Below, in pieces: positions 6,897-27,166 of a stretch of DNA of 27,166 bases; positions within the stretch are counted from its first letter, which is position 1, and every line of letters begins with the position of its first letter. The DNA lies in IMG/VR virus record IMGVR_UViG_3300002301_000053, positions 1-27,166 of that record. One strand, given 5' to 3'. This stretch comes from a virus (lineage: Duplodnaviria; Caudoviricetes). A program made the translations under genes and the position numbers. Below the pieces are notes generated by a model, which searched no databases, was not told where the DNA came from, and was given only the letters and a program-made list of their open reading frames with translations.

Positions 6897-6977
6897 TGGT
6901 TTATTTTATTTCAATAATTAGCTTTATTTATCTGATTTTTGCATTATTGATTGTGCGAGAAATTTGTGAGGCTCAAG

Positions 6978-9119: not shown

Positions 9120-9128
9120 GGGATAAAA

Positions 9129-10127: not shown

Positions 10128-10141
10128 CTAAGGAGGGAAAA

Positions 10142-10342
10142 ATGACAGGTACTAAAAAAAGCGGGACATTCGAGGGAAAATCGAATAAGTTCGGACACGG
10201 TGGACGCGCAGCGCAACTAAAAGCAAAAGGCGTTCCAGAAGCAGTTATTGGTGAGATTGCACGAAAGAAAGGCGCAGCGCCGGGCCAAAAAAATTACCAT
10301 GGTGGTAAAAAGGCTTGGCACGGATCAGGAGGAAAGAAATGA
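10142..10342 (+). CDS. Small basic Gly/Lys-rich protein (66 aa)
   Basis: Strong AAGGAGG SD. ATGA overlap with the next small ORF. Confidence 0.7.
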   Translation: MTGTKKSGTFEGKSNKFGHGGRAAQLKAKGVPEAVIGEIARKKGAAPGQKNYHGGKKAWHGSGGKK

Positions 10343-10479
10343 GCAAACGTGAAAAAGAAGATAAAGCCGAGCATGAAGAAGGCGCAGAAAAGCACAAAGG
10401 GCCGCATAAGATTGATGGTGAATCGGCACCCAAAGGTTCGGCTTGGCACGGTCATGGTAAGCCGGGAAAAATGTGTTGA
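10339..10479 (+). CDS. Small His/Gly/charged protein (46 aa), not in ORF track
   Basis: MSKREKEDKAEHEEGAEKHKGPHKIDGESAPKGSAWHGHGKPGKMC. AGGAGG SD and ATGA coupling. Shares the AWHG motif with the upstream ORF. Confidence 0.65.
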   Translation: MSKREKEDKAEHEEGAEKHKGPHKIDGESAPKGSAWHGHGKPGKMC

Positions 10480-10504
10480 CACTCGAATTGATTTAGTATA
10501 AGCA
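10476..10504 (+). promoter_or_regulatory. Putative promoter for the capsid gene
   Basis: Perfect TTGACA at 10476-10481. -10 candidates are TATAAG (15-bp spacer) or TAAGCA (17-bp spacer). Confidence 0.45.
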
Positions 10505-10716
10505 TGTAAAAGTCGTCGCCGGACTTTAACCGCGCAGCAGTTCGCCGGAACTTAAAACACGAGAGCATCCGACAGTCCAGCGGCGTTTCGCCCTTCGTAA
10601 AGGGCCTATCTGCAAACGTGGTCGCTCACGGAAAAATGCAGGGGTGAGGCTACACCCTAAGATAATAACCTGACGCAGTTGAAAACTTCAAATTCAACTT
10701 TTGACAGGGAATTATC
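10505..10716 (+). ncRNA. Putative structured RNA / long 5' leader of the major capsid gene
   Basis: About 210 nt non-coding region packed with at least six hairpins, two with an identical GCCG-containing loop. Confidence 0.45.
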
Positions 10717-11850
10717 ATGGCCTCAACTACAATGACCTCCGCCAATGCCCTAACCCAAAAACTTTGGGCTACGGAAGATTGGGTAAATCCCGGCCAACGT
10801 GTAGCGTTCGGCCATATGTTTATGCGCGGCGCGGTATTTTACGTCGAGGATTTCCTTGGCAATACTGGGATGGCTCGCGGCGATCAGATTACATACGATT
10901 ATACCAATAAGCTTGTCGGTATTCCGATTGGCGAAGGCGGCACACTGGACGGCAACGAAGAAGCCCTGAATCTTGGCAACTTCCAGATGTCGATCAACGT
11001 CACCCGAATCGGCGTTCTCAATCCGAATGACGACACGATTGAGCAACAGCGTACCTTGGTCGATTTCCCGGAACGTACCCGGAAACTTATTCCGCAGCGT
11101 CATATGGAATTGCTGGATACGGCAGTTTTCTATCAGCTTGCCGGTTCCTATCCGACTTCATGGACGCAGAATGGCACGACTTGGAGCGGCTCAAATCGCC
11201 TCTTTGTCACCGGCCAGAATGTTCCCACGGCTCCTACGGCCAATCGTGTCGTATGGGCTGGCGGTGTATCAGCGGATGAAAGCCTGACCAGCTCCAACAC
11301 GTTCACGATGGATTTGATAGACTACGCCCTTGAATTGAACGATGCAGACCCGATTCAGCCGATCAAGATGCTGGCGGATGATACGTTTGATTTATTCGTG
11401 TCTCCTTACCAGTTGACCGATCTGAAACAGGATACTACTGGAAAAATTCAGTGGTATAGCATGGCGATTGCTCGTGCCACTGGCGGCGATTTTGAACAGA
11501 TTGATGGGGGGATGTTCGAGACAATGCCTTGTCTCGGCCAATATGGTCGCGTCAATATCTATTCGGCTCCTCGTGTGGCTTATGGACTGAACTCAAGTAC
11601 GAGTGCCGTTATTACCACAGTTCAGCGTGCGGTATTGGTTGGGAAAGATGCCTTGTCTTTCGGCAGTCCTTTCGGTGGCCGTCCTACGGATAGCGATGTT
11701 CCCTTGAAGTACTTTAGTCAGTTGAAGGACTACGAATACTATAAGGGTCTTGAAGGTCGCATGATTTACGGCCTCAAGAAAACTGTGGCGTCAAACTCGG
11801 AAGACATTGGCGTCATCGTGATTTCCACTTACGGCGCGGCTCACACCTAA
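10717..11850 (+). CDS. Major capsid protein (N4-gp56 / DUF4043-like)
   Basis: 377 aa after the scaffold. GDQITYD..L.G..I.EGGTLDGNEEAL, VSPYQLTDLK and RAVLVGKDAL motifs. Codon bias consistent with high expression. Confidence 0.88.
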   Translation: MASTTMTSANALTQKLWATEDWVNPGQRVAFGHMFMRGAVFYVEDFLGNTGMARGDQITYDYTNKLVGIPIGEGGTLDGNEEALNLGNFQMSINVTRIGVLNPNDDTIEQQRTLVDFPERTRKLIPQRHMELLDTAVFYQLAGSYPTSWTQNGTTWSGSNRLFVTGQNVPTAPTANRVVWAGGVSADESLTSSNTFTMDLIDYALELNDADPIQPIKMLADDTFDLFVSPYQLTDLKQDTTGKIQWYSMAIARATGGDFEQIDGGMFETMPCLGQYGRVNIYSAPRVAYGLNSSTSAVITTVQRAVLVGKDALSFGSPFGGRPTDSDVPLKYFSQLKDYEYYKGLEGRMIYGLKKTVASNSEDIGVIVISTYGAAHT

Positions 11851-11860
11851 GGAGTAACCA

Positions 11861-12349
11861 ATGACTGACACTTTTCCAGATATTGTTCCTGTTGGATTTC
11901 AGGGCGATTACACCGATTTTAATCATGTTAAATGCCAGAGAAGCGGTGATGTGCGGCGCACGGCAGGAGATGTTTCAATCCCGGCAGCAACGGCAACAGG
12001 TAAGATTATCGGTCTTTTCCCATTTAATTCCGGCATGAGTTTTGTCGGTCTTAGCGGATATAACTTCTACGTTGCCGATTTGGATATGGGTTCAACGGTA
12101 ACGATGAGTTTGGGTGTCCAGTATCAGAATACGGGACAGGGAACAACCAATCTTACCTTGATTGAAAGCGCCTCAACTGTTGCTCAATCGGCTGGCTACA
12201 TTCCGCCTACGGGAACAAGTTGGCAGGAATATGTGACGACTGGCAACGGATGGGTTGTCGCTTCGATCACGCTTGGCCCAACGACAACGACAGGATCAAT
12301 TACCTACAATGTACCGTTTGTTTATGATCAGCCATTGTTGGTGGCATAA
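11861..12349 (+). CDS. Putative capsid decoration / cement protein
   Basis: Beta-rich 162 aa ORF directly after the capsid gene, with strong AAGGAG SD. Function inferred from position. Confidence 0.55.
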   Translation: MTDTFPDIVPVGFQGDYTDFNHVKCQRSGDVRRTAGDVSIPAATATGKIIGLFPFNSGMSFVGLSGYNFYVADLDMGSTVTMSLGVQYQNTGQGTTNLTLIESASTVAQSAGYIPPTGTSWQEYVTTGNGWVVASITLGPTTTTGSITYNVPFVYDQPLLVA

Positions 12350-12352
12350 TGA

Positions 12353-13015
12353 ATGTCTTACACATTCAGCCAGTTAACATCTTATGTCAGTAAGAGGTTA
12401 ATCGACCCCAGCAATACCGCGGTAAGCACTTCGGATGTGCAGGAAGGCATCAATGATTCGATTGCCTATTGGAAGTTTAGGAGGTTCTGGTTCAATGAAG
12501 CGGCGGAAACAGTTGTTTTAACGGCGCAGAATCAAACCATTCCATTGCCGGATAATATACTGGTTCCTTCACTGCAAGACGATGGTTTCAACATTTTGTT
12601 TGGAGGAGTGAAATATCCGCTTGTAAAGGTCGATATAGCTACAATGGATAGTCTTTATCTCTCAAATGGATATGGACTTCCACGGTGGTACGCAAGAATG
12701 GCTAATCTCGAATATCAGGTTTATCCCATTCCCGATACGAATTATACGACCGATCTTTACATGCTGAATGACTATCCAGATTTGGTAGCTCCGACTGATA
12801 CGAACGATTTTACCAATAATGCCAAACGTCTTATCGCACTTTGGGCCTTGGCAAATCTGGTGTCGGAATTAAGGCAAGATACGCCGGGAACGGGAGATTA
12901 CTATAGACAGGCAGCACAAGACGAATACAGGAATCTTCGAGTGCTCACAAACAAGAAAAACGCAGCCGGGAAACTCACATTATATAGCCAGTTGAACAAC
13001 AGGGGGTTTAGATGA
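12353..13015 (+). CDS. Head-tail adaptor / tail tubular protein A-like
   Basis: 220 aa with N-terminal helices, FWFNE, GLPRWYA and VYPIPD..Y motifs typical of podophage adaptors. Syntenic position. Confidence 0.7.
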   Translation: MSYTFSQLTSYVSKRLIDPSNTAVSTSDVQEGINDSIAYWKFRRFWFNEAAETVVLTAQNQTIPLPDNILVPSLQDDGFNILFGGVKYPLVKVDIATMDSLYLSNGYGLPRWYARMANLEYQVYPIPDTNYTTDLYMLNDYPDLVAPTDTNDFTNNAKRLIALWALANLVSELRQDTPGTGDYYRQAAQDEYRNLRVLTNKKNAAGKLTLYSQLNNRGFR

Positions 13016-13581
13016 CGGTTCTTACTGAAGGCGAATATCTCAGGGCAACAGAGAATTTTGCCACGCCAGCGATTAACTTGGCCGGATCAACTTCTGGTTC
13101 AACCAAATTTGTAGCTTCCGCGACTGCTTCAGGTGTTTTGACGTTTCCGGCAACGACCGATACGATTGCCACGCTTGCCGGTACGCAAACATTTACCAAT
13201 AAGATCTTCACGGCTCCGACCATCAATGGTGGCACGATTAATCTTCCCGGTCGGAGCGTTGCAGCTAGTGTAACGGCTGCTGGAACGAGTTTGGCAACGG
13301 CTACTCTCTTAAATACAGATATAAATGTTATCGGTGCGGCGGCTTCGGGGACGGGAGTAGCTCTTCCGACTCCGGCAACCGGATTGGAAATTACGATTTT
13401 CAATACGGCCACGAACAATATCAAGGTTTATCCCAATTCTGCGGGTGGTACGATTGATGGTGGCGGTGCAGGATCAGCGGTAACGCTTACCACGGCTCTT
13501 CGGTGTACCTATTTTTGTACGGCAACTTCGACGACTGGTGGAACTTGGTTAAGCGCCCAACTCGGAGTGAAATCGGCATGA
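13012..13581 (+). CDS. Thr/Ala/Gly-rich minor virion (fibre/decoration) protein
   Basis: LAGTQTFTNK fibre motif and C-terminal VALPTP..IKVYP..GGTIDG module. Confidence 0.65.
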   Translation: MTVLTEGEYLRATENFATPAINLAGSTSGSTKFVASATASGVLTFPATTDTIATLAGTQTFTNKIFTAPTINGGTINLPGRSVAASVTAAGTSLATATLLNTDINVIGAAASGTGVALPTPATGLEITIFNTATNNIKVYPNSAGGTIDGGGAGSAVTLTTALRCTYFCTATSTTGGTWLSAQLGVKSA

Positions 13582-14225
13582 GTGTACGTCTTTATATTCA
13601 TGTTGCATCGGGACGCGATTGGAAATCAGCTTTTGGCAATAGCATGGTTGGGCTTACCTTCCATCTTGCTACACAACGGCTTGGTGGAAAACTAAGTCAT
13701 ATGCAGTTCAGCATTGCAGCACAGGCCGGTATAGCCCAGGCGCGTAAGGAAGATATGGACAAGGCCCTTGCAGGAGGGTTTACGCATTTCATGTCTTTGG
13801 ACGACGATATGGTTTTTCCAATGGACGTTGTTGACCGCCTGATTGCCCATGAAAAACCAATCATGGTCGCCAATTATTCCCGCAAAACAGCCGAAAATAC
13901 TCCGGTTTGTCTTGGCCTCGATGGAAAATACCTAGACAGTTCTACGAAAACCGGCATTGAGGAAATAGGTTTTCTTGGTTTAGGAATGGCGCTTCTTGAT
14001 CTCCGCGAAGTCGTAAAAATTCCAGCACCTCGTTTTGCTTTCGTATGGGATGAAGAACGCAAAGAAATGTGGGATGAGAGTACATTCTTCTCGATGAAAG
14101 CACGGGATGCTGGTGTTTCTATTTGGTGCGATCACGATCTTTCCAAGGAAATCGGGCATGTAGGCGATTTCGTTTATCAATTCAAAGACCTCACTCAGAC
14201 TTTCCAGCAAAAGGAAGCGGCATAG
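13578..14225 (+). CDS. GT-A fold glycosyltransferase (family 2-like)
   Basis: THFMSLDDDMVFP (DxD motif), GLGMALL and IWCDHDLSKEIGHVG. Start moved to ATG 13578 (ATGA overlap, GGAG SD). Confidence 0.78.
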   Translation: MSVRLYIHVASGRDWKSAFGNSMVGLTFHLATQRLGGKLSHMQFSIAAQAGIAQARKEDMDKALAGGFTHFMSLDDDMVFPMDVVDRLIAHEKPIMVANYSRKTAENTPVCLGLDGKYLDSSTKTGIEEIGFLGLGMALLDLREVVKIPAPRFAFVWDEERKEMWDESTFFSMKARDAGVSIWCDHDLSKEIGHVGDFVYQFKDLTQTFQQKEAA

Positions 14226-14240
14226 CCGATAGGGTGAATT

Positions 14241-15104
14241 ATGCCTACCGAAACTACAAATTTTGGTCTGTTGAAACCCTTAGTAAATAATGCAACAGAC
14301 TCCGATCTTTGGGGTGGGCAGCTTAATACTGATATGGATGATATCGACGGTCTGATTTTGACCGGTATGAACTTTGTCACATCCGCAGAAACAACTTCTT
14401 TCAATGTCATTGCCCCTACAGCTCAGAGTATAACAACTGGTAGCGCGAAAACGCTGTTTCTTTGCGATGCGACTTCCGGCGCTATCGTTGCTTCTTTACC
14501 TTCCGCCTCATCGGCAGGAAATGGATTTACGGTTGCTTTCAAGAAAATTGATGCTGGAGTTAATGCCGTTGTTCCTACCGTGGCTGGATCGGATACGATT
14601 GACGGTTCTTCGGTATTCACGATTTCAACACAATGGGGATGGGTTATCCTTGTTTCGGATGGGGCAAGCAAATGGAGCGTGATCTCCGATTTTGCCAGCA
14701 CCGCAGGATTGCCAACTCTTGCAGGTAATAATGCCTTCACAGGAACAAACGATTTTACGAGTGGAATTCTTAAAGCCGTTACTCAAACCTCTACGGATAA
14801 CAGTACGAAAGTAGCTACTACAGCTTTTTTTAATAGTCTTGCTCGCTCACTTGGTTCAAATGGCTATTATACTTTTCCCGGTGGATTGATAATTCAATGG
14901 GGAACAACGCTTGGTACTTCAAATCCAGAAACTTTCAGTTGGCCGATAGCTTTTCCCAATGCATGTTTCGCGGTTGGCTCTACTATTGCAGCGGCCTTTT
15001 CTAGCGCTGCGTTTGTGCAGGGATCACAGGTAACATCCACAACTGGAAAATTTTGGTATGGAAATAATCAAGAGCCAACTTTTTATATAGCTATAGGCCA
15101 TTAA
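14241..15104 (+). CDS. Tail fibre protein with gp53-like C-terminal domain
   Basis: N-terminal TTNFGLLKP..WGGQLN anchor, DNSTKVATTAF motif, and C-terminal NGYYTFPGGLIIQWG..WPIAFPNACF. Confidence 0.8.
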   Translation: MPTETTNFGLLKPLVNNATDSDLWGGQLNTDMDDIDGLILTGMNFVTSAETTSFNVIAPTAQSITTGSAKTLFLCDATSGAIVASLPSASSAGNGFTVAFKKIDAGVNAVVPTVAGSDTIDGSSVFTISTQWGWVILVSDGASKWSVISDFASTAGLPTLAGNNAFTGTNDFTSGILKAVTQTSTDNSTKVATTAFFNSLARSLGSNGYYTFPGGLIIQWGTTLGTSNPETFSWPIAFPNACFAVGSTIAAAFSSAAFVQGSQVTSTTGKFWYGNNQEPTFYIAIGH

Positions 15105-17159
15105 ATGGCAACCAAAAAATCACAAATCGTCCCGCTCGAAATAACTCCTGGTGTTCAACCGAATACCGACAGGACGCCATATAATACGCCGCATTATACA
15201 TTTGCGGACAAGGTGCGATTTTGGCGTGGTGTTCCGCAGAAGATTGGCGGTTGGCAGCAATTCCAATTTGAGAATGGTGCAACGCTGGATGGCGTTGCGC
15301 GAACGCTTTACAGCGCTGTTATTGCCAATACAGCGACGACGATTATAGGCACGAGTTGGGGGCTTTACGCTTTATTCGGGCAAGTTTTGACGAATATAAC
15401 CCCGCTTAATACGAGCACAACAGCAATTTCAGCGTCTCTATCAACCGATTACGCCACACTTGGCAGCAATCCGATTGCAACGCAAAACGGTACTGGATAT
15501 CTCACAATCACGGATAGCAATTATGCCGCTTATCAAATAGGTGATGATTATACGCTTTCAGGAGCGACGACGACGAATGGCATAACCAATACGATCATCA
15601 ATGCACAGCATATCATACGGTCTATCGGAACCGGCACGGTAACGGTTTTGACGGGGGGAACGGCAACAAGCACGGGTTCAGGAGGCGGTGCTTCAGTTGT
15701 GCGATCAACGGGACTTGTGACTGTTGCCGCAACCGCCCACGGCCAGCCCAATGGCAATAGAACAAAAATTGCCAGTGCAACAGCCTTCGGCGGAATTACG
15801 ACAGGCCAGATAAATGCTGAATTTATTGTGCGTGGCAGCACGACAAATACATTTCAGGTAATGACAACCGGAACGGCAACTTCTCATGTTACGGCGGCAG
15901 GTGGAACCGGCACAACTTATCAAACCCAACTCGTAGCCGGAAATGTCGATCAGTCTTTTGGTATCGGATATGGTCTTGGGCTTTATGGTGCGGGATTATA
16001 TGGAACATCCAAGATGTCGGGATCAGGAATTACTTATCCGCAAATCTGGTTCATGGATAGGTTTGGAGATAAAGTCATTATGACGCCGGGAAATCAACTT
16101 GGCATCTATGTATGGGACGGAAATACGGCAGTAGCCCCGACGCTGCTTACAAATGCACCGACTGCGATAAATTATCTTTTTGTTTCGGACAACATTCTAA
16201 TTACATTCGGATATGAAAATGTAAATAACCAGATTTTTACCTCGGATATTGACGATCCGACAAACTGGACGGCCAGCAATGATAATCAGGTATTTCAGGA
16301 TGTAATTTATGGAGCCGCACAACTTGTTTCCAACATTCCTGTTTTGGGAATAAATCTGCTTTTTACGAATTTTCAAACCTACACATTCTCTTACACGAGC
16401 TTACCGGGCATATGGAATATCCAACTTCTCGATAATTCCATAGGCATTATTGCTTCGATGGCGCGTTGTTCGGTAAATAATGTTGCTTACTGGATGGGAC
16501 AGAATAATTTTTACTATTGGGCTGGCGGTAATGTGAGCATTATTCCTGCTAATTCACAGGATCAATGCACGATGCTCAATTATGTTTTCGGAAATCTGAA
16601 CACGGGACAGATCAGCAAAGCCTATGCGTGGTATAATCCTAAGTTTAACGAGGTATGGTTTCATTATCCGAGCGCAAATAGCGATGAATGCGATATGGTG
16701 GCTCGCGTTACCCTCGATGACATGGTGTGGTCGCCGGATACGCTTGAAAGAACCTGCGCCGAATATCCCCAAAATCTGTTCAATAATCCTCGTCTTATCG
16801 ACTGGACAGGAAATCTATGGACGCATGAATTAGGCACAGATGCGGGAGCAAATTCGCTTCCTTTTACGTTGACGAGCAATCTTCGCACAGGCGGAAAAGA
16901 TACGGCGCTTCTGTCCGGGTTTGTGCCAGATAGCTTGCAAGCAAGCGATATAAATGTAACTTTAACGGCAGCGCTTTTCCCTCAGACTTTCGGAACGCCT
17001 ACTTTTCAACAGACTTATGACATTGCCGATAATGCTCCTCGTGAAAATATCCAGATCGGCGGAAGGTTTTGGCAATATGAATGGCAAGGGGATTCCTTGG
17101 GCCAGAATTGGGTTATGGGAAGCTGGTTTGAACTTTTGCAAGATAGCGCGGCAAACTGA
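15105..17159 (+). CDS. Tail nozzle / tail tubular protein B-like (packaged-DNA stabilisation)
   Basis: DKVRFWRGVPQKIGGW N-terminus, beta-propeller-like repeats, YWMG and FNEVWFHYPS motifs. Syntenic position. Confidence 0.72.
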   Translation: MATKKSQIVPLEITPGVQPNTDRTPYNTPHYTFADKVRFWRGVPQKIGGWQQFQFENGATLDGVARTLYSAVIANTATTIIGTSWGLYALFGQVLTNITPLNTSTTAISASLSTDYATLGSNPIATQNGTGYLTITDSNYAAYQIGDDYTLSGATTTNGITNTIINAQHIIRSIGTGTVTVLTGGTATSTGSGGGASVVRSTGLVTVAATAHGQPNGNRTKIASATAFGGITTGQINAEFIVRGSTTNTFQVMTTGTATSHVTAAGGTGTTYQTQLVAGNVDQSFGIGYGLGLYGAGLYGTSKMSGSGITYPQIWFMDRFGDKVIMTPGNQLGIYVWDGNTAVAPTLLTNAPTAINYLFVSDNILITFGYENVNNQIFTSDIDDPTNWTASNDNQVFQDVIYGAAQLVSNIPVLGINLLFTNFQTYTFSYTSLPGIWNIQLLDNSIGIIASMARCSVNNVAYWMGQNNFYYWAGGNVSIIPANSQDQCTMLNYVFGNLNTGQISKAYAWYNPKFNEVWFHYPSANSDECDMVARVTLDDMVWSPDTLERTCAEYPQNLFNNPRLIDWTGNLWTHELGTDAGANSLPFTLTSNLRTGGKDTALLSGFVPDSLQASDINVTLTAALFPQTFGTPTFQQTYDIADNAPRENIQIGGRFWQYEWQGDSLGQNWVMGSWFELLQDSAAN

Positions 17160-17449
17160 TGCAAAAATATCCTCGAAACATCAAAGCGGATGCCACGGAT
17201 TGCGCGGATGCGATTAACAAGATTTCGCAATTGCGCGATCAGGATATTATCGACCGCAATAATTTTCCGTCGATATTTTTGAGTGGAAGGACAACCGGAC
17301 ACATTCCGTCATCGGCAACGGATATTTCCGCGACTGACCGGGTGGGGGACATGAGTTTCGCGACTGATGCGAGTTACGTCTATTTTTGTTGCGCGACGGG
17401 GGCGACTCCTCCGGTGGCATGGCGTCGTGTGGCTTTGGGGAGTTGGTGA
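17159..17449 (+). CDS. Small tail-associated protein (96 aa)
   Basis: TGATG coupling on both sides. C-terminal GDMSF..YVYFC..WRRVALGSW motif seen in phage structural proteins. Confidence 0.6.
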   Translation: MQKYPRNIKADATDCADAINKISQLRDQDIIDRNNFPSIFLSGRTTGHIPSSATDISATDRVGDMSFATDASYVYFCCATGATPPVAWRRVALGSW

Positions 17450-17910
17450 TGATTGAATGTCTCGTAGAGCCTTTATCTCATTTGCTTATGACCGGATTAA
17501 TCCAGTTGGCCCATGAGGCATGGCAAGCCACTAATTTTGCTCATGAACATCCTGGCATTCCTTATGGACCGGATTGGGAAATGTATCAAAATATGGAAAT
17601 GAATAATCGACTTCGATTTGTGGCAATGCGTGAAAATGGTAAGTTAATCGGGTATACTTCGATAGTATTAGATACGGACAGCCACAATGTGTTATTGTTG
17701 ACGGCGACTATTCGTGATATTTATGTTGTCAAAGAAAAGCGTGGGTACGCAGCTAAATTGGTAAGATTTACGGAAAGTCTGTTTCCCGTTCTCGGTGTGA
17801 AGCGGTCTTTGATTGGTGAAAGGGTTCAGGGAAATGTGAGTGCAGAAGCATTCTACAAAGCCCTTGGTTATGAATTAAGGGAAAAAATCTACGGAAAGAC
17901 GATCCACTGA
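17449..17910 (+). CDS. GNAT-family acetyltransferase-like protein
   Basis: GKLIGY, IYVVKEKRG (motif A-like) and FYKALGY. Start moved to ATG 17449 (TGATG overlap, GGAG SD). Confidence 0.78.
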   Translation: MIECLVEPLSHLLMTGLIQLAHEAWQATNFAHEHPGIPYGPDWEMYQNMEMNNRLRFVAMRENGKLIGYTSIVLDTDSHNVLLLTATIRDIYVVKEKRGYAAKLVRFTESLFPVLGVKRSLIGERVQGNVSAEAFYKALGYELREKIYGKTIH

Positions 17911-18848
17911 TGCTAAAACTCACTGAAAATGGCTATGAATATGTGGATACCCTGATTTGTTTTATCAGTGGCGGAGACACAAGTAGCAATCAATCTTCGC
18001 AATCAACAAGTGGATTCCAAGCACTTTCGCCGCAAATTCAACAAGTATTCAACACGCTTGCTCAACAATCCGGTAATTATTTACAGGGCGGTTCTCAGGC
18101 TTCACAACTTCCTTCAATGTATACTCCTGCACCTCTAACTTCTGGTGAAAATACGGCAATCAATACGGTTAATCAGGGATTTAATCCTACGGCTTCACAG
18201 CTTAATTCAAGCATTTCTGAGCAGATGAACCCCTATAATCAGGATGTTATTAACCAAATTAATCAAAATGCTTATGGTCAAAATAGTGTTTTGCAGGGAC
18301 AACTTGCTACACAAGGCCAGTTTGGGAGCAATCGGGCTGCTCTCGGAGCGAATGATATCGCCAATACTCAAGCGAGCGAAATTGGTTCATTGCTAAATCC
18401 TGAATATAATTCGGCTGTCACGAATGCCTTGACGACTATTCCGCAGTTGAATGCTCAAAGCGCACAATCTCAATTACAAACCGGCCAATTTCTGCAAGGG
18501 CAGACACAAGCCGCAAATCAGGCTCCGATTACAGGATTGCAAAGTCTTGCACAGATTCTTGGTGTTTTACCGACGAATAGCGGCCAAAGCACGAGCAGTG
18601 GAAGTTCCAACGGATTTAATTTTGGCCTATTTAGTTCGGACATTTCGCTCAAGGAAAATATCGTTCCATGTGGAACTGAGAATGGCTATAACATTTATGT
18701 CTTTAACTACAAAGGCGATCCTGAAAAATATATTGGGGTTATGGCGCATGAAGTCGCAAAGAAAATGCCCGAAGCCGTTATTGAGAACAACGGTCATAAG
18801 ATGGTGGATTATGGTAAAATCGGCGTTCGATTCAGGAGGGTTGCATGA
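17910..18848 (+). CDS. Putative ejection/pilot protein with C-terminal peptidase S74 (intramolecular chaperone) domain
   Basis: Q/N/S-rich helical body with MNPY and FGSNR motifs. C-terminal SDISLKENI..YVFNYK..IGVMAHEV..PEAV..VDY. Confidence 0.72.
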   Translation: MLKLTENGYEYVDTLICFISGGDTSSNQSSQSTSGFQALSPQIQQVFNTLAQQSGNYLQGGSQASQLPSMYTPAPLTSGENTAINTVNQGFNPTASQLNSSISEQMNPYNQDVINQINQNAYGQNSVLQGQLATQGQFGSNRAALGANDIANTQASEIGSLLNPEYNSAVTNALTTIPQLNAQSAQSQLQTGQFLQGQTQAANQAPITGLQSLAQILGVLPTNSGQSTSSGSSNGFNFGLFSSDISLKENIVPCGTENGYNIYVFNYKGDPEKYIGVMAHEVAKKMPEAVIENNGHKMVDYGKIGVRFRRVA

Positions 18849-19165
18849 CTTATCAAATGCCCCAACAAAGTTCCCTCCAACAACTTCTAACGCAAATTCT
18901 TCAACAAAGAAAGCAACAGGGTGCTGTTGACCCATCGGGACAGCAAAACATCATTCCTTCACAAACTAACCCTTCTCAAGGACAGACTAATCCACTTTCT
19001 CAAATTCAAGCATTCAGTCAAATTCTTGGATATAATCCTAGTTCTACTTTTGGATATAATCTTAATCCTTCAAACGATATAAATGCTCCTTCACAGAATC
19101 TCCAACAAAGCGGTGGATTTTTAGGAATGCTTGCTAACCTATTTGGACTTGGGGGAACATCGTGA
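18845..19165 (+). CDS. Gln-rich hypothetical protein (probable internal virion protein)
   Basis: AGGAGG SD, ATGA/GTGA couplings. Located among the ejection genes. Confidence 0.6.
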   Translation: MTYQMPQQSSLQQLLTQILQQRKQQGAVDPSGQQNIIPSQTNPSQGQTNPLSQIQAFSQILGYNPSSTFGYNLNPSNDINAPSQNLQQSGGFLGMLANLFGLGGTS

Positions 19166-20283
19166 GCCTTTCCGATCTCGTTAATATTATAGGTCAACAA
19201 AATACCTTATCTGGTATCCAGAAATGGGCGCAGGCTGCTGGTCAATCGGGACAACTCGATCCCAATACAGCGCAGTTATTTCAGGATTCTCCGCGTGTTG
19301 CCGAGCAAATGATGCCTGCACTTATCCAACGCCAGATGCAAATGCAAATGCTTGGAATTAACCCTCAACAAGGAAGTGCATCAAATCCGCAACTTTCTTC
19401 TCAAGGCGGCTCGGCTATTCAACAATATGCCGGAAGTGTTGGCGATCAGAATCCGAATGCTCCTATACCTCAAGGATTGCCTTCTCAAATGCCTCAAGGA
19501 GGCGCACAGCAGCCTCAAGGAGGTAATGCATTGGATCAGGTAAGGCAAGCCTTTGCCCTTGGAAACGGCAATATAGAGGCTGGCATGAAAGCATTACAGG
19601 CTCAAAAAGCACTTCAAATCCCTCCTGGAACAGGTCCAATTCCTCCTGGACAACAATATCAAAATGGCAAACTTGTGAATCTTCCGGGTGCAATGACTCC
19701 CGGACAGCAAGATAGAGATAAAGATTTTGCCGATATTTATACGCCTTTCAAAAATAGTGGGGGACAGCAAACAGCATCATCCAATTTGAACGCCATTCAA
19801 GGCGTCATCGACAAACTTAATAATGGCTCTCTTACCACGGGAGGCCCCCTAGATAGATTTACATTCGATGGTGAAGGAAATCCTACAGACATGGGGCGAG
19901 CTTTTAATCCCGAACTTTTAGCTGCCAATCAACAAGTGATGAAAGCCGTCCTTCCTTCCTCAAAGGCACTTTTTGGTGCTCGCGTTACTCAAAAAGAAGT
20001 TGCAATGAATTTGATGGCGAATGGTCTTTCGCCTTATGCACCTGTTGCACAAAATATCCAAAACTTAATTACGCTTAAAAATAATCTTGCGACCGCTCAA
20101 CAGGCTACCGCGCAGGCGGGGCAGTATTTCGATAAGAACGGTACGCTTGCCGGTTATCAGGCTCCTGTTCCTGGTATTGATCCAGTGGCTACACCATCTA
20201 ATCCGCAAGGAGCGACAAATCAGCCAACTCCACAACTTTTAGATGCCCTAAAGAAACGGGGGTTGTTGAAAAATGGCGGTTGA
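19162..20283 (+). CDS. Putative internal virion (ejection) protein
   Basis: Q/G/P-rich, 373 aa, directly upstream of the SLT-bearing protein. Confidence 0.6.
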   Translation: MSLSDLVNIIGQQNTLSGIQKWAQAAGQSGQLDPNTAQLFQDSPRVAEQMMPALIQRQMQMQMLGINPQQGSASNPQLSSQGGSAIQQYAGSVGDQNPNAPIPQGLPSQMPQGGAQQPQGGNALDQVRQAFALGNGNIEAGMKALQAQKALQIPPGTGPIPPGQQYQNGKLVNLPGAMTPGQQDRDKDFADIYTPFKNSGGQQTASSNLNAIQGVIDKLNNGSLTTGGPLDRFTFDGEGNPTDMGRAFNPELLAANQQVMKAVLPSSKALFGARVTQKEVAMNLMANGLSPYAPVAQNIQNLITLKNNLATAQQATAQAGQYFDKNGTLAGYQAPVPGIDPVATPSNPQGATNQPTPQLLDALKKRGLLKNGG

Positions 20284-22852
20284 TCTTTCAGAGCTTGAGC
20301 AGCATTTCGGGCTTCCTCCTGGGTTGCTTTCCGCGCAAATCCAGACTGAAAGTGGCGGCGATCCGAACGCCGTTTCACCAGCAGGCGCGGTAGGATTGGC
20401 TCAATTTATGCCAGCAACGGCGGCACAGTTAGGCATTGATCCTACCGACCCGGATCAATCTAAAGTCGGCATGGCGATGTATGATGCTCAAAATCTGCAA
20501 AAATTCGGCGGCGATGTTCCCTCGGCGCTTGCCGCATATAATTGGGGTCCAGGTGCTGTTGCCAAAAACGGCATTCAAAATGCACCGCCTGAAACGCAGA
20601 ATTATGTTTCCAAGATCATGGGAATGCTGAACCCGGTTGGAACTGCAAATGCAGCGGAAGTCAATCCTTACGATAATATGTCGGATGATGATCTGATAGC
20701 AGAAGCAAAAAAACAGGGCATTCCTATCAATGATATGAGCGCCGATGTAGGAGCATCTTCTAATCTTCCACCTGACCAACAAGTTAATTCTGGGGCAATA
20801 ACTCCGCTACAATATGGAAGCAAGCCTTTGGCTCAACAGGTCGGCACGGATATTTTTGAGACAGACCATCCGCAAGCACAACCTACTGCATCTAATGAAT
20901 ATGATAATTTATCTGACGAACAATTAATTGCGGAGGCAAAAAAACAGGGTATTCCAACTCTTTCTCCTCAAGAGGTAATGAATAAAAAAGCTCAAACTTC
21001 TGTTGCTACTTCACTTCCAGCACAATTAACGGCGTATGGCGCGAATGCAATGCACGCCATTTCCAATGTCATTCCTGGACTTCCTCAAGCTGGTTCGGCC
21101 ATAGCAGCTGCCGCAGGATACGGAAAAGGAAAGAGTTTTGGCGAAAGGTATAACGATCTTGAAGCGTCTCAAAAGGCTATGCGTCAAGCTGGAGAAGAAA
21201 ACAATCCTGGAGCCACGGCATTAGGGCAATTATCAGGAAATGTTCTGGGTGCTGGCTTAGCCGGTGGTTTAATGGAGAACTTAACTCCTAATGCACTGGC
21301 TCAATTTGAAACATATGCTGCTGCTAACCCGTTAAAGGCATCAGCACTTTCCGGTGCCGGATATGGTGCACTGTATGGATTTAATCAAGGTGAGGATACC
21401 AGTTCTCGCTTAAAAGGCGCTGCTGAAGATAGCGCATTAACTGCATTGGCTAGTCCCCCTATTGCACTTGCGATGAGATATATTGGTGCTCCAATAGCAT
21501 CGAAACTTGGTGAGTATGGGGGAAGCGCTTTGTCTAAATTGGCTGATTATATTGGTTCTAAAGGTGCTGATGATGGACTAGGTGCAGCATCTTCTGATAT
21601 AAGTGGAGAGGCACCTTCTATGGCCCAACCTCTTGAAACCGATGTCTCAAAAATTGATCCTAATACACCGATCAAACAATATGAAAATCTCACGCCGGAT
21701 ATTGAGAAAGAGCAGGGAATTTCGGGTGATGAAGTCACCAAATCTCAAGTTAATAAACTTCAAGGAATAACTCAGGAAATTGCACACATTAAATCCCTAA
21801 ATGATAATAGCGCGGCGGGTCAGGCACGTTTGGCTCAACTTGAAGATGACGCTTCTTACTGGCGTGATCAGCTTGGCTTAAATGGTAAGCCTGAACCTGT
21901 ACCGGCTGGACCGGGGCCTGGCTATGAGGAAAGCCAAGGCGCCCAAGCTAAAGCCTCTCCTGTATCGACCTCAACTCCTATTGCAGCGGCTCCTGCACAA
22001 GGTGGAACAGTCGGTGGTATCATTAAAAACATTGCTTCAAAACCGGATGAGACAACAAACCCCGTTTCCAACGAGTCAGATATAGCGTCTAAAGTTGCCG
22101 CTCAATTTTACCAAAAAGCACAAAACAGCGGAGAGGTTCTTCCTGCTTCGTTCACCAATCAATTGGTCTCAAAAGCCGAAACTATGGCACCACAAACGTT
22201 GGCCGGTAAGTTAACGACTGGCTCATCACCTTTGGAGGATTTAGTTAGCCGTTGGCAGGCCTTGAAAGATAAGCCATTAGACATGCAGTCTGTTCAAGAA
22301 ATGGATGAAGGTCTTGGAAATCTAATCGACAAAGAATACACCAATGGAAAAATATCAAAGCAAGGTAAGCAATTACTTGATTTACAGCATACCTTCCGTG
22401 ACATGATTGATCAGACCGGAAGCCAAGCTGGTGAGAACTTCTCAAATGCTCGCCTTGCATGGAAACAGGCCATGAAGTTGCGCGACCTTGAGCGCATCAG
22501 GGACCGTGCTGAATTGGCTGACAATCCAGCTACCATGATTAAGTCAGGTATTCGTACCCTTTTGAGCAATCCTAATAAATCCCGTTGGTATAGTGCTGAT
22601 GAAATTACTGCTCTTAAACAAGCCGCAGATCGTGGGGTTCTTGGAAGTGTCGCCCATGTCTTTGGTTTCCGTGCACTACCCTATGTAACGGGAATGATGG
22701 GAGAATTAGTGGGGGGACCACTTGGCGCTGGCATAGGTGCTGGATTAGGACAGGTCGGATCTGCAACCATGAGAAAAGTAGGAACGGGAATACAGAGTGG
22801 GAGATTGGCACAAGCCGAAAAATTTATCGCGTCAAAAGTGCCAAAGCCATGA
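20273..22852 (+). CDS. Internal virion protein with N-terminal lytic transglycosylase (SLT) domain
   Basis: TESGG catalytic Glu, GAVGLAQFMPATA, ALAAYNWG and ETQNYV motifs, followed by a long Ala/Gly-rich ejection-protein body. Confidence 0.85.
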   Translation: MAVDLSELEQHFGLPPGLLSAQIQTESGGDPNAVSPAGAVGLAQFMPATAAQLGIDPTDPDQSKVGMAMYDAQNLQKFGGDVPSALAAYNWGPGAVAKNGIQNAPPETQNYVSKIMGMLNPVGTANAAEVNPYDNMSDDDLIAEAKKQGIPINDMSADVGASSNLPPDQQVNSGAITPLQYGSKPLAQQVGTDIFETDHPQAQPTASNEYDNLSDEQLIAEAKKQGIPTLSPQEVMNKKAQTSVATSLPAQLTAYGANAMHAISNVIPGLPQAGSAIAAAAGYGKGKSFGERYNDLEASQKAMRQAGEENNPGATALGQLSGNVLGAGLAGGLMENLTPNALAQFETYAAANPLKASALSGAGYGALYGFNQGEDTSSRLKGAAEDSALTALASPPIALAMRYIGAPIASKLGEYGGSALSKLADYIGSKGADDGLGAASSDISGEAPSMAQPLETDVSKIDPNTPIKQYENLTPDIEKEQGISGDEVTKSQVNKLQGITQEIAHIKSLNDNSAAGQARLAQLEDDASYWRDQLGLNGKPEPVPAGPGPGYEESQGAQAKASPVSTSTPIAAAPAQGGTVGGIIKNIASKPDETTNPVSNESDIASKVAAQFYQKAQNSGEVLPASFTNQLVSKAETMAPQTLAGKLTTGSSPLEDLVSRWQALKDKPLDMQSVQEMDEGLGNLIDKEYTNGKISKQGKQLLDLQHTFRDMIDQTGSQAGENFSNARLAWKQAMKLRDLERIRDRAELADNPATMIKSGIRTLLSNPNKSRWYSADEITALKQAADRGVLGSVAHVFGFRALPYVTGMMGELVGGPLGAGIGAGLGQVGSATMRKVGTGIQSGRLAQAEKFIASKVPKP

Positions 22853-23032: not shown

Positions 23033-23371
23033 ATGGCTAAGTTTACGACTACTCTTGCAGCCGATAGCACAGGAAAATACGTCTGTGACGTTAAAAAGTC
23101 CCGCGAATACCGCAATTGGTTTGCGACGGTGGGAGCACAAGGAACTTGGGGAAGCGGGACACTCACTTGGTTTTTTTCGATAGATCAAGGAGTTACGCTT
23201 ATTCCCATCAAGGATGTAACTGATACGGCTATTTCCCAAACGGCAAATGGAGGGGTAAATATCGAGCTTGGTTCAGGGAACACCAATAAAGATAATCCTC
23301 AAATTTGGGTCAAACTTTCCGGCTCGACAAGTCCTAGTCTTTTGATCTTCGTTCTCGATAACCGCAGTTAG
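23033..23371 (+). CDS. Hypothetical beta-rich protein (112 aa), probable virion accessory
   Basis: GGGAG SD, alternating beta-strand pattern. Confidence 0.65.
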   Translation: MAKFTTTLAADSTGKYVCDVKKSREYRNWFATVGAQGTWGSGTLTWFFSIDQGVTLIPIKDVTDTAISQTANGGVNIELGSGNTNKDNPQIWVKLSGSTSPSLLIFVLDNRS

Positions 23372-23380
23372 GAGGAAACA

Positions 23381-23914
23381 ATGTCAACCGCTCTAAGAAT
23401 TGGAAATAGCAAAGACGCCGTAATGCAGGGGATGAAACTCTTGCATTCAATTCTGGATGTTTTAACACAACCAGACGCCAAGAAAATTCTGGGCGAAGCA
23501 ATTTCGATGACGGAAGAAGAAATCCAGAAAGCAAACGATGCGCGGAGTTACATCGAACAAGCTGCTCGTCTTCGGGATGAAATCACGAAAGATCAGATTG
23601 CATCTGAACAGTCTAAGGTTGAGGCATCAAAAATGATGCAGGATGCTAAAACAGCTTCCGCACAAGCCAAGTCTGCGCTTGTGAACGCTGAAAACCGTTC
23701 ACAGGAAATCGCCCGTAAACACGCAGATAAAGACCGTATTCATTCAGAGAAAGATGCGGCGCAAAATGCAGAAGATCAGCGCCTTTCTGAATTGAACGCG
23801 GCCTTATCGGCACAGAAAGAAAAGCAGACCGCCCGTCAAATTCAGCTTGATGAACAGACTGAAAAACTTCGTAGCAAAGCGGCAGCAGCAGCACAAATTA
23901 TGCACGGTGTCTAA
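23381..23914 (+). CDS. Coiled-coil protein (177 aa)
   Basis: AGGAGG SD, long A/E/K/Q heptad region, TAATG coupling to the next gene. Confidence 0.7.
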   Translation: MSTALRIGNSKDAVMQGMKLLHSILDVLTQPDAKKILGEAISMTEEEIQKANDARSYIEQAARLRDEITKDQIASEQSKVEASKMMQDAKTASAQAKSALVNAENRSQEIARKHADKDRIHSEKDAAQNAEDQRLSELNAALSAQKEKQTARQIQLDEQTEKLRSKAAAAAQIMHGV

Positions 23915-24240
23915 TGGGTGTTACTGGCCTTGATGTTATCAATAGGATTACCGTCAACAATCTTTCCAATAATGTGACGGTAACTGGTTCCTATAATATC
24001 AAGGCTACGGATAATAATGTGTATGTTAACAATACAAGCGGCGCGAGCGTGACAATGACACTTCCTAGTCCTCCGGCAGCCAATCAAGAACTTTGGATCA
24101 AGGATATAGCCGGAAATGCAGCGGTCTATAACATCACAATTTCAGGAACGATTGATGGAATGAGTAATCCAGTTATCGGCTCTGATTATGGTGGTGTTTT
24201 GATTAAATGGAATGGTTCATCATGGTCACAAAAAGCTTAA
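23914..24240 (+). CDS. Stand-alone tail-fibre adaptor-like module (108 aa)
   Basis: VTMTLPSP..LWIKDIAGNA..ITISGTIDG..W, the same module seen inside 14241..15104. Confidence 0.65.
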   Translation: MGVTGLDVINRITVNNLSNNVTVTGSYNIKATDNNVYVNNTSGASVTMTLPSPPAANQELWIKDIAGNAAVYNITISGTIDGMSNPVIGSDYGGVLIKWNGSSWSQKA

Positions 24241-27166
24241 AATATCTTTCATTCATTTTCTGGTTTCTACCAGTGGTAGCTTATGCCTATTCCCCTCCCC
24301 CCAATTGCACGACAAGCGGATATGGCCTCAATTATGCAACCGCTACGAATGCTTTTGGATGTGTAAGTCTTGGCGGAAGCGGCGGAACTATCACCCTCGG
24401 CACCTCCGCATCGGCGACGAACCCGCAGCGAAGCGGCGATGCGAAAACCGGACTTTATTCCGCAAATGCGGGCGAACTTGATTTTGGCGTCAATGTTTCC
24501 GGCACAGGAACTCAAGAAGGATATTTTACCTCATCCGGCCTGACGCTTGTAAATCCTCTGAGCGTGGCAAGTGGGGGAGATGCGCAGGTTGGTGGACTTA
24601 CATTCAATTCGACGGGCGCGGCTTCGGCAAACTCAACCGCCATCAACGCAGCACTCACTAATGGTGGAAGGGTGACTGTCGATTGCCCTACAGGGTCTAC
24701 GCTTTATATCGGCGCAACCCTTGTGATTCCTTCGTACTCATCGTTATACGTTTATCCGAATTGCAATCCTACAGCGGTGTCGGGCGTAGCACCGCTTGTC
24801 ACGAATAAGGCATCCCAAACATCATGGACAACGCTTTACGACAATAGCGGCGTCATTACGACTGGTCCTCTTTCCCTCATAAATCTTTCGAACGTCTCGG
24901 CATGGTCAAATAATAGCGGCTCCGGCACATCCTACACTAAAGGGACTTACGTTTCGGCGAATAGCAATCTTTATTGGGAGAGTGTTTCCTCCTGCACGGG
25001 AGCAACTTCTGGGACTGGTCCCAGCGGGACAGGATCTGGCATCACAGATGGAACATGCTCGTGGAATTATATCACTACTAACCCGTCAAATATATATAAC
25101 GGTCAAGGCGTTGTTGTTCATTATCCAAGCCATGGACTTTCTTTGGGGCAAGCGATCTGGCTTACTCCCGAAGGAGATGCAAGCCTAACCGGGAACTTCT
25201 GGTCTGGAACGCAGTCTGCTCATACTCGTGGTGGACCTGTTGATGCCGCTTACCTTGGCATATTTCCCATCATTAACGTCAACGACAGCAATTATGTGAC
25301 AGTCGTTCTGAGACGCAGCCAAGCGGCAGCCTTTACGGGCATTCCCATGCTTGTAAAACAAGCAGACCAGAATGTTTATCTGGGCGGAGGAGCTGTGTGG
25401 AACGGAAATTATCCGACGAATAGCACATGTTCGGCACCGGCTGTGTGTCATAACATATTGTTCGCAGGGGTGATGAACCTTGTCATCGATGGAGCTTACG
25501 CAGAGAACCAAAACAGGTTTGAATTTTTGATAGCTGGCGTTGAAAACGCAGATATAGGTCATATCGGTATCGGGCCGCTCGGCGCACCTTATGACGGAAT
25601 AAAATTCTATGGCCCCGATTTCGATGTACGCCTTCACGATGTCTTCGGAGCGTCAACCGATAGCTATAATACTGATGATTTTCTTTCGTTTAATACGGAA
25701 GAAGACAGTACGTATGGAACAAGCGTTATCGCGGCTGGCGATATTCTGAATGTTCAAACCACGAATGTCACCGCCTATGGCGGCCATGCAATTGCGCTTT
25801 ATCAGTCGCAACCTTACCTATTTATGGATGACCTCGATTTTTCTGGTGTGCAAGGAAATAATTTACAGTCCTATGTTCCGCTTTCGGTCATAAACGACGC
25901 TGGCTCTACATCGGGGCAGGGGGGTACGATTGGAACCTTAAAAGTCCACAATATGACGCTTCCGGGCAACTCGGCGGCGGCGGCGGTTATATACGTAAAC
26001 GCGGTCGGCCTGACTTTAAAACATCTCATCCTCGACAGCATAAACACGAGTCTTGTGGGGTCAAATCTTTACTTGGCAAACTTCACTGGGGGCACCATTG
26101 GCGGCGTAGAAGAGAGCAACAATACCGGCCTCTCTCAAGGAAAATTAAACCTTGTTGCCGGAGCCAGCATCGGCCAGATAAACTTCACCAACAATAACAT
26201 CAACTGCAATAATTGCCGCGTCATGGACGCTGAAAGCGGTACGCTATCAACGCTCAACATCGTAAACAATGAGTTTTCCAGCGGCGCAAGCAATCTTGTT
26301 TTGGACAAGATAGGTATCGATGTTTCTTTTGTTAACAACTATCTGCCTACCGCTACCTCTGCTTTCATCAATTTGCAGTCTAGCGACAGTATATATGCCG
26401 CGAATAATGTCGCGCCCAACAACACGGGCGGTCTAGCAGTTTCTACGGGGGCGATCACGTCCACCATAACATCGGGCGGCGGTAACGTGTTCTCCGGCAA
26501 TTCATGGTTCTCTGGAGCAGGGACGCAAGTGACGCAGGGGGTCATAAATAATGTACTCTATTCGTCTGGGGCTGATATAGGACTTTCAAGCACGAACGTC
26601 GATTATGTCCAGATTGCAGGTAGCGCAACCGGCTCTCCCGGAACTGTTACGATCTCGGCGCAAGGTACCGACAGCAATGTAAATATAGCTTTAACTCCAC
26701 TCGGAACCGGCATAACGACAACCGGGGCAAATTTCGAGGTTATAGGAGGTCAAAGCCTCGGGGTTGGCAACGGCGCGGCATGGTTCGCGCATTGCAGCAC
26801 AACGTCATCGAGCGTCTATTCCTGCGTAAATGACGCTGAATGGATTTCGGTTGGAACAACGTCGAATATCACGCTCTATGGCCCCGTGGCTGGCGCACAA
26901 GGCGCGGCAAACGCGGCAGGCACGGCCCTCAGCTTCACAGGCGGCGCTGGCGGCGCTACATCAGGTGCAGGGGGTGCGACTACTCTGGCGGGGGGCGCGG
27001 CTACGACTTCGGGCGCTGGCGGCAGCGTGACAATTACGGGTGGAGCGGCAGCGGGATCAGCTCAGAATGGCGGAAATGTGACAATAACGGGAGGTGCCGA
27101 TACTTCTGGAGGTACACAGGGAATCATAATTCTTGCGACACCGGGCGGCACTCAAGCTGAAATCAC
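24207..27166 (+). CDS. Large tailspike/depolymerase-like beta-helix protein with N-terminal signal peptide (3'-partial, >980 aa); not in ORF track
   Basis: Manual translation is open from ATG 24207 (or 24222) to the window end. Features in order: signal peptide MVTKSLKYLSFIFWFLPVVAYA, the pectin-lyase-like start NSTAINAALTNGGRVTV, GH28-like DGI/TDD/GH motifs, Asn-rich coils, the GTDSNVNIALTPLGTG fibre motif and Gly-rich repeats. Confidence 0.82.
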   Translation, partial: MEWFIMVTKSLKYLSFIFWFLPVVAYAYSPPPNCTTSGYGLNYATATNAFGCVSLGGSGGTITLGTSASATNPQRSGDAKTGLYSANAGELDFGVNVSGTGTQEGYFTSSGLTLVNPLSVASGGDAQVGGLTFNSTGAASANSTAINAALTNGGRVTVDCPTGSTLYIGATLVIPSYSSLYVYPNCNPTAVSGVAPLVTNKASQTSWTTLYDNSGVITTGPLSLINLSNVSAWSNNSGSGTSYTKGTYVSANSNLYWESVSSCTGATSGTGPSGTGSGITDGTCSWNYITTNPSNIYNGQGVVVHYPSHGLSLGQAIWLTPEGDASLTGNFWSGTQSAHTRGGPVDAAYLGIFPIINVNDSNYVTVVLRRSQAAAFTGIPMLVKQADQNVYLGGGAVWNGNYPTNSTCSAPAVCHNILFAGVMNLVIDGAYAENQNRFEFLIAGVENADIGHIGIGPLGAPYDGIKFYGPDFDVRLHDVFGASTDSYNTDDFLSFNTEEDSTYGTSVIAAGDILNVQTTNVTAYGGHAIALYQSQPYLFMDDLDFSGVQGNNLQSYVPLSVINDAGSTSGQGGTIGTLKVHNMTLPGNSAAAAVIYVNAVGLTLKHLILDSINTSLVGSNLYLANFTGGTIGGVEESNNTGLSQGKLNLVAGASIGQINFTNNNINCNNCRVMDAESGTLSTLNIVNNEFSSGASNLVLDKIGIDVSFVNNYLPTATSAFINLQSSDSIYAANNVAPNNTGGLAVSTGAITSTITSGGGNVFSGNSWFSGAGTQVTQGVINNVLYSSGADIGLSSTNVDYVQIAGSATGSPGTVTISAQGTDSNVNIALTPLGTGITTTGANFEVIGGQSLGVGNGAAWFAHCSTTSSSVYSCVNDAEWISVGTTSNITLYGPVAGAQGAANAAGTALSFTGGAGGATSGAGGATTLAGGAATTSGAGGSVTITGGAAAGSAQNGGNVTITGGADTSGGTQGIIILATPGGTQAEI
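26930..27110 (+). repeat. Gly-rich ~16 aa peptide repeats (GGxVTITGG-like) within the spike gene
   Basis: FTGGAGGATSGAGGATTLAGGAATTSGAGGSVTITGGAAAGSAQNGGNVTITGG. DNA repeat gtgacaat(t/a)acggg(t/a)gg. Confidence 0.6.

Follow-up and report, generated by a model that had tools for sequence, protein, structure and literature searches.

The virus record IMGVR_UViG_3300002301_000053, which was analyzed in its entirety (27,166 bases; hereafter referred to as the window), belongs to an uncultured, short-tailed podovirus of lytic type and ends within a gene for a tailspike that carries a putative secretion leader (hereafter, the target). We lean towards the reading that the target is exported from the host cytoplasm and subsequently docked onto phage particles at lysis. 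Its export via Sec and its oxidation are, from comparative evidence, very likely, because the leader and pairs of Cys residues come and go together across relatives. The fold and the branching domain discussed below are known already; the main texts of the open-access literature that we searched gave no account of leader-bearing tailspikes of tailed phages or of such an export route, and the earlier note on this DNA likewise knew of no well-described system of this kind. A term search of the main text of the Tunturi virus paper gave no mention of signal peptides or mass spectrometry (PMC11924767).

The target reading frame (24207..27164) is open over 986 codons and runs off the end of the contig. 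From the ATG at 24222, its product begins with MVTKSLKYLSFIFWFLPVVAYA|YSPPPNC, the first 22 residues of which (24222..24287, plus strand) form a predicted signal peptide of the Sec/signal peptidase I type with cleavage at AYA|Y. Two Lys residues, an uncharged hydrophobic stretch, a Pro and A-Y-A at positions -3/-1 are present, and there is no lipobox; the earlier note had described such a leader, correctly in each detail that we checked by sequence and hydropathy. The 11-residue hydropathy of the leader (2.33) shared the top rank with that of the GNAT frame at 17386 among the N-termini of 25 late open reading frames (ORFs). Past the leader we found no membrane anchor, the maximum 19-residue hydropathy being 1.63. 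Initiation at the ATG at 24207 would lengthen the leader by five residues; the Shine-Dalgarno match is not strong at either ATG, apart from these two, only the GTG at 24273 could start the frame ahead of residue 115, and no further Met occurs until residue 376. The public full-length protein P0001 (1515 residues, 18 Cys) starts at the Met encoded at 24222, and P0012, whose fibre body is different, has nearly the same leader end, FPIVAYA|YSPPPNC. An assembly error was ruled out because contigs of other runs agree base for base over the start region: those from two runs, either of which may be the source of this DNA, span the whole stretch with zero differences, and that of a third spans 23797-24284, again with zero differences. 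No RNA data sets carrying the sequence were listed.

All 12 Cys residues encoded in the window fall into six neighbouring pairs, exactly as had been noted: 29/47, 155/181, 258/279, 403/409, 662/665 and 858/868 (numbered from M24222 as 1), with gaps of 18, 26, 21, 6, 3 and 10 residues, respectively. This local arrangement was matched in 33 of 200,000 random Cys placements, under a gap limit of 26 residues taken from the target's own data. Pairs 403/409 and 662/665 are not family-wide, being present in 3 and 1 of the 44 leader-bearing relatives defined below. Paired Cys residues alone do not prove the action of DsbA, since a siphovirus tail tube is also cross-linked by disulfides, meaning that tails built in the cytoplasm can carry them (PMC13576161, available part). 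In the accessible text on Klebsiella phage screens, dsbA was a weak hit, interpreted there as a receptor effect (PMC13412088).

To evaluate the leader and the Cys pairs across relatives, we compiled a comparison set. Among 13 first-round homologues, 11 start with leader-like segments as judged by eye; the other two, P0006 and P0014, both look truncated. A profile search yielded 216 representatives at E <=1e-30. The set comprised 152 proteins, namely 150 listed from the profile search plus P0008 and P0011, of which nine were dropped (one unrelated protein of 5284 residues, seven fragments and P0006), leaving 143. Leader labels were assigned by a hydropathy rule and corrected by eye, whereby four kept positives were overruled and one negative was promoted. 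By these labels, 44 relatives have a leader and 99 do not. The pair C155+C181 was complete in 25 of the 44 leader-bearing proteins but in none of the 99 leaderless ones; C258+C279 was complete in 22/44 and 0/99, respectively, most leaderless proteins having no module in which this pair could lie. The earlier note had regarded homologues lacking the signal peptide as an argument against export. Such homologues constitute 99 of the 143, yet they strengthen the export reading, because all 99 also lack both the 155/181 and the 258/279 pair.

Because kin share traits, we built a tree, using 282 core columns with the Cys columns 155 and 181 masked. The clade of the target has 29 members (support 0.978), of which 27 bear leaders that are mutually unrelated in sequence, the median core identity being 39%. 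At least one of the pairs 155/181 and 258/279 was retained by 25 of these 27, and the two leaderless members (P0023 and P0028), which lie on separate branches, have neither. Across the tree, the leader state changed 15 times. Local Cys pairing was 0.84 in the clade versus 0.47 in shuffles and 0.63 versus 0.45 in 17 leader-bearing proteins outside it; in 97 leaderless proteins it was 0.55 versus 0.52. An A-x-A motif within residues 13-40 was found in 35/44 leader-bearing proteins as compared with 42/99 leaderless ones. An even number of Cys residues was rejected as a marker (23/44 with and 45/99 without a leader). These results, with leaders kept while diverging and Cys pairs tracking the leader, support the proposal in the earlier note that the protein would be exported and acquire periplasmic disulfides.

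The target is a tailspike-fibre chimera consisting of a predicted beta-helix, a fibre shaft and a tip. The earlier description needs one correction: besides a spike part, the gene has a shaft and a tip continuing past the window. The mature N-terminus (24288..24566, plus strand, as are all target segments) comprises the loop motif of Cys29/Cys47 and a short fibre-shaft-like stretch, and is a candidate docking segment; it is common to P0012 and P0014, and partly to P0013. Its predicted local distance difference test score (pLDDT) was below 50 in the monomer model, where residues 1-118 were not resolved. The AlphaFold2 monomer, from an 11-sequence alignment, was predicted to form a right-handed parallel beta-helix over residues 119-773 with an N-terminal capping helix (predicted template modelling score, 0.74); the helix (24576..26540) includes Cys pairs 155/181, 403/409 and 662/665. 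The top Foldseek matches of this model were the Klebsiella phage depolymerases 9K4A (E 7e-10) and 7W1C (E 3e-9), and VIA gave Z scores of 24.7 for AlgE4, 24.6 for phi29 gp12 and 24.3 for the Sf6 tailspike, with RbmB in the same range of 24-25. The predicted fold therefore agrees with the depolymerase-type fold suggested earlier; the chemistry cannot be read from the fold by itself, because VIA ties these four proteins. Pfam, PHROG and Protein Data Bank sequence searches with the target gave no match.

Two modules are inserted in this region. The first, assigned by alignment, is a small CBM5/12-like module with Cys pair 258/279 (24903..25076); relative P0028 matches PF02839 at E 0.003, under the cut-off. 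Leaderless virion proteins (adaptors, sheath and fibres) carry this small module with G-T-S/T or similar where the target's clade has S-C-T, and have no Cys at the position of residue 258. The second, identified by the family profile and with approximate bounds (25107..25361), is a beta-barrel resembling that of phage endosialidases (match to 4HIZ, E 3.6e-6); PF12195 was found under the cut-off in 7 of 50 relatives scanned. A candidate catalytic site (25593..25679) consists of the acid set D458, D485 and D486, together with K461, Y463 and the more distant E494. These six residues are kept in 77-97% of the 143 relatives (D458 in 128, K461 in 131, D485 in 136 and D486 in 138). Because the acid set resembles the GH28 arrangement described below, glycosidase activity is likely. 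The Gly/Thr-rich fibre shaft with Cys pair 858/868 occupies 26589..27166, and the gene, judging from P0001, runs on past the contig to residue 1515. In that protein, residues 1159-1510 form a tail-fibre tip domain, with matches (E 1e-3 to 9e-8) in the tail fibres of Synechococcus phages and of cultured phages such as HMO-2011 and MEP401. The homology of shaft and tip points to a trimer.

We then examined the genomic position of the target. Two of four close relatives of the window phage (nozzle identity ~50%) reach the corresponding slot, L041 and L043 (genomes 95% and 100% complete). In both, a conserved gene of 112-125 codons precedes the gene for an unrelated protein that bears a leader and six mature Cys residues; holin-/lysin-like genes come next. 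The slot is therefore a swappable host-recognition slot, of which the leader is the constant part. In the stretches read, which extend up to the last 1.4 kb of G005, the slot protein is the sole large fibre-like protein, beside a fibre of 212-281 residues. One of the two slot-mates matches tail-spike PHROG 4636 (E 1e-22); that of L041 has no family match to an enzyme. In the L043 slot-mate (16394-18301), tail-spike repeats come after a GDS-L motif that lies close to the start of the mature protein and looks esterase-like by eye.

We fetched the loci of five full-length homologues, of which four have context. L002 resembles a podovirus and carries several genes with leaders downstream of its ejection genes; at 8007-12415 four such genes are consecutive, one having matches to collagen-like tail-fibre PHROGs. 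L024, from a Bryobacterales metagenome-assembled genome (MAG), is a prophage with a contractile tail in which the family gene follows the endolysin; P0004, a close relative, comes from a prophage in a Bryobacterales MAG. In L027, a siphovirus-type tail tip is followed by an endolysin and the family gene, with a tandem pair of leader-bearing genes after the endolysin at 9299-12991, and in L025 the family gene lies beside an endolysin-like gene. Leaderless relatives occupy the same tail-to-lysis position: gp049 of Caulobacter phage Quill_5.2 is encoded between the terminase and a signal-arrest-release endolysin, and another member, in G016, lies by eye in a tail module. The Quill_5.2 member (gp049-gp050; L036, 19695-21529) is seemingly split into overlapping frames of 494 and 127 residues, its relatives being single proteins of ~600-650 residues.

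On these grounds we favour the following course of events. Host Sec would export the tailspike-fibre hybrid, the leader would likely be cleaved at AYA|Y, and disulfides would form in the periplasm. Signal peptidase would thereby expose an N-terminus usable as a docking peptide. When the compartments mix at lysis, this freed N-terminus may dock onto finished particles through an adaptor made in the cytoplasm, either an XD2-like domain encoded at 23914 or 14241, or the jelly roll encoded at 23033, and the docked spike would likely bind and cut host surface polysaccharide. P22 tailspikes attach to heads in vitro. The joint pattern of leader and Cys pairs, the late-operon position and the homology of the tip to tail fibres support this reading. 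Of the three uses proposed in the earlier note, namely virion attachment, release enzyme and superinfection exclusion, attachment is tentatively the favoured one, and the note's overall interpretation is partly supported. More generally, we think it somewhat probable that virion assembly in tailed phages includes a second branch, located in the periplasm, with one beta-helix family having switched routes as often as the tree changes indicate and its disulfides going with the leader.

Candidate docking partners are encoded upstream on the same strand. A leaderless, stand-alone T4-gp10-like (XD2) branching domain lies at 23914..24240; a profile of seven XD2-like copies matches residues 100-169 of CBA120 TSP4-N (7RFV) at E 2.2e-5, and in the leader-bearing relative P0004 such a domain is fused within the protein, behind the leader. 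XD2-type domains assemble branched spike complexes (PMC8825819, available part), and a secondary spike of KP32 docks on a branching domain via a short N-terminal peptide (PMC13352976, available part). The XD2 ORF overlaps the target gene by 19 nucleotides (24222-24240) across a CAAAAAG run, where a -1 slip would join the two into one cytoplasmic protein; we found no homologue that shares this overlap. The conventional fibre of the phage, a leaderless short tail fibre of 287 residues (14241..15104, plus strand; PF21882 and tail-fibre PHROG), has an XD2-like domain at about residues 55-146 that also aligned with the 23914 ORF. The second candidate base is a leaderless 112-residue jelly-roll protein of the YomS/XepA type (23033..23371, plus strand; AlphaFold2 pLDDT 84), with VIA Z scores near background (8.7 for YomS and 8.2 for XepA) and counterparts 34-41% identical in L041 and L043, just upstream of the slot. 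This jelly roll belongs to a large phage family and in several phages directly precedes genes for fibre-like proteins, whether these have leaders or not; in L060, L061 and L063 its gene follows the capsid gene, and it may serve as the base for fibres on capsid or tail. By analogy with the head spikes of gene-transfer agents, it was considered as a capsid-vertex base, which was not confirmed: Foldseek gave no match at E <=0.001, and VIA only YomS/XepA. Between the jelly-roll and XD2 ORFs lies a leaderless, charged and probably coiled-coil protein of 177 residues (23381..23914, plus strand) that is absent from both close relatives. In the relatives P0073 and P0112, the stretch that immediately follows the leader matches the very beginning of leaderless fibre proteins (E 8e-8 and 6e-8, respectively). 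Prediction of a complex of three XD2 ORF products with three mature N-termini scored 0.01 against a mark of 0.32, which weighs neither way. No relatives turned up when viral contigs were scanned with the 177-residue ORF or the mature N-terminus; the 108-residue ORF gave one weak match.

Several observations weigh against export followed by docking. The four relatives with context and both slot-mates adjoin lysis genes or follow ejection genes, and three phages clearly have a leaderless fibre besides, an arrangement equally compatible with a free enzyme. Residues 23-126 of the target had no counterpart among the leaderless N-termini of a local set (1185 sequences), and in most other loci the jelly-roll gene precedes leaderless genes too. 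Docking on XD domains cannot be general, because the short fibre of L041 is of the collar type and was not found by the XD search. As to oxidation, disulfides occur in cytoplasm-built tails as well, as mentioned above for the tail tube (PMC13576161, available part). The Cys content is 1.2% with and 1.54% without a leader, and does not separate the groups. The leader-bearing clade members P0008 and P0036 have neither pair, and P0006 has both pairs and, as recorded, no leader; we excluded P0006 on the view that its gene call is probably truncated, judging from the recorded protein alone, whose residues 7-54 match residues 254-301 of P0004. Finally, the virion-recorded leader-bearing proteins of phage phi18:3 considered below are non-homologous, with 0, 1 and 3 Cys residues.

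A possible but clearly less probable alternative is that the protein is exported and oxidized but never joins the particle, being released at lysis, or secreted by a lysogen, as a free depolymerase that clears capsule or biofilm for the escape of progeny. The family gene or its slot-mate does lie beside endolysin-like genes in L024, L025, L027 and L041, separate leaderless fibres exist, and in 17 of 40 leader-bearing members the helix cap is preceded by <=30 residues; phages are known to make free depolymerases (PMC6116005, available part). However, a short N-terminus is just as usual among leaderless members (16/62), which occupy the same slot, a free enzyme needs neither a long fibre shaft nor a tail-fibre tip, and one freed at lysis needs no leader. 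The L041 slot-mate, which matches no enzyme family, also argues against it. We consider it unlikely that the exported protein trims or shields host polysaccharide to exclude competing phages. Although export would give access to nascent polysaccharide and P0004 resides in a prophage, the target is co-oriented in the late operon and overlaps its upstream neighbour, with no lysogenic promoter of its own evident (none was scanned for). The family was found in 6 of 401 sampled genomes of the Caulobacteraceae family and 1 of 401 of the class of the Bryobacterales MAG, and the inspected loci resemble tail modules rather than polysaccharide clusters. Least likely of all is an ordinary cytoplasmic tailspike with an unused leader, made from a downstream start or a -1 frameshift fusion at CAAAAAG and air-oxidized after lysis: the weak Shine-Dalgarno matches, the GTG at 24273, the overlap at the A-run, the XD2-spike fusion of P0004 and the proposed air or host oxidation of cytoplasm-built tails (PMC13576161, available part) would accommodate it, but tripartite leaders of unrelated sequence are kept in nearly the whole clade, A-x-A within residues 13-40 is commoner in leader-bearing than in leaderless proteins, Cys pairs vanish where the leader does, and the XD2 domain of P0004 itself sits behind a leader.

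We compared export and docking of the target with known systems. Phage beta-helix tailspikes and depolymerases (the 7W1C K1 lyase, 9K4A K64-1 S2-4, Sf6 2VBE, HK620 and phi29 gp12) share the predicted fold, the capping helix, inserted sugar-binding domains, the late tail-module position and the swappable slot. They begin with a particle-binding domain, whereas the target begins with a Sec-type leader and differs further in its conserved Cys pairs and its fused shaft and tip, with only 9-14% identity. Secreted beta-helix enzymes, including GH28 polygalacturonases, AlgE4 and RbmB, have a fold like that predicted for the target (Z 22-25) and are exported, as the target very likely is; the target differs in its phage context and fibre domains. 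The catalytic motifs of GH28 are NTD and DD, and the acid set of the target would in a similar manner put a single D and a DD on successive rungs, other GH28 motifs not being evident. PF00295 (GH28) did not match the target and matched 1 of 50 relatives scanned at E 1.7e-4, under the cut-off. The pIII protein of filamentous phages binds the receptor, carries a leader and disulfide bonds, and matures in the periplasm; a C-terminal membrane anchor holds it, and the particles are extruded through the envelope. In contrast, the target has no transmembrane-like segment after the leader, and its phage has a portal, a terminase and an HK97-type capsid.

With branched receptor-binding protein systems (CBA120 TSP4 with XD2/XD3; KP32 gp37 and the gp38 docking peptide), the phage shares XD2-like domains (23914 and 14241) and a spike without an anchor of its own. 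In those systems the docking segment is the N-terminus of the protein, and the available parts of the reports mention no export (PMC8825819, PMC13352976); here, a docking N-terminus would be exposed only by signal peptidase, and one of the XD2 domains has a gene to itself. In Cellulophaga phage phi18:3 (KC821620.1), gp085-gp087 begin with classical leaders, and tandem mass spectrometry is the basis of their annotation as structural (GenBank notes), which shows that leader-bearing proteins can be recorded in the proteome of a tailed virion. They are not homologous to the target by any search, and the record is silent on leaders. Their three consecutive leaders (L037, 8892-14584) end before Gln, and the other translated proteins with this annotation have no leader.

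Family searches identified the remainder of the late operon, which is of the podovirus type: terminase (5337-6896), P22-like portal (6951-9119), major capsid protein (10717-11850), SU10-type adaptor (12353-13015), nozzle-like protein (15105-17159) and ejection proteins with a transglycosylase domain (17910-22852). The best match of the major capsid protein is Rhizobium phage RHph_Y1_10 (33%), and a GcrA-like regulator (3-611, minus strand) matches weakly, under the Pfam cut-off; taken together, these two matches suggest an alphaproteobacterial host. A beta-clamp-like protein (3078-3752, minus strand), also under the Pfam cut-off, gives a hint in the same direction. A glycosyltransferase-like gene (13503-14225; weak Anp1 match, PHROG 1574) and the GNAT acetyltransferase gene (17386-17910) lie within the structural operon.

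The usual view is that tailed-phage particles are assembled entirely in the cytoplasm. Export and docking of the target, if true, would add a last assembly step coupled to lysis, which would keep a polysaccharide-cutting enzyme or a sticky fibre away from unfinished particles, and would make Sec and Dsb host factors for the infectivity of progeny, beyond receptors. Annotation pipelines would label such genes as secreted host or auxiliary enzymes and miss their role in host range. The virion proteomics data of phi18:3 could show cleaved N-termini directly, and the family offers a ready comparison between leaderless members with unpaired Cys residues, one of them in the cultured phage Quill_5.2, and leader-bearing members with paired ones.

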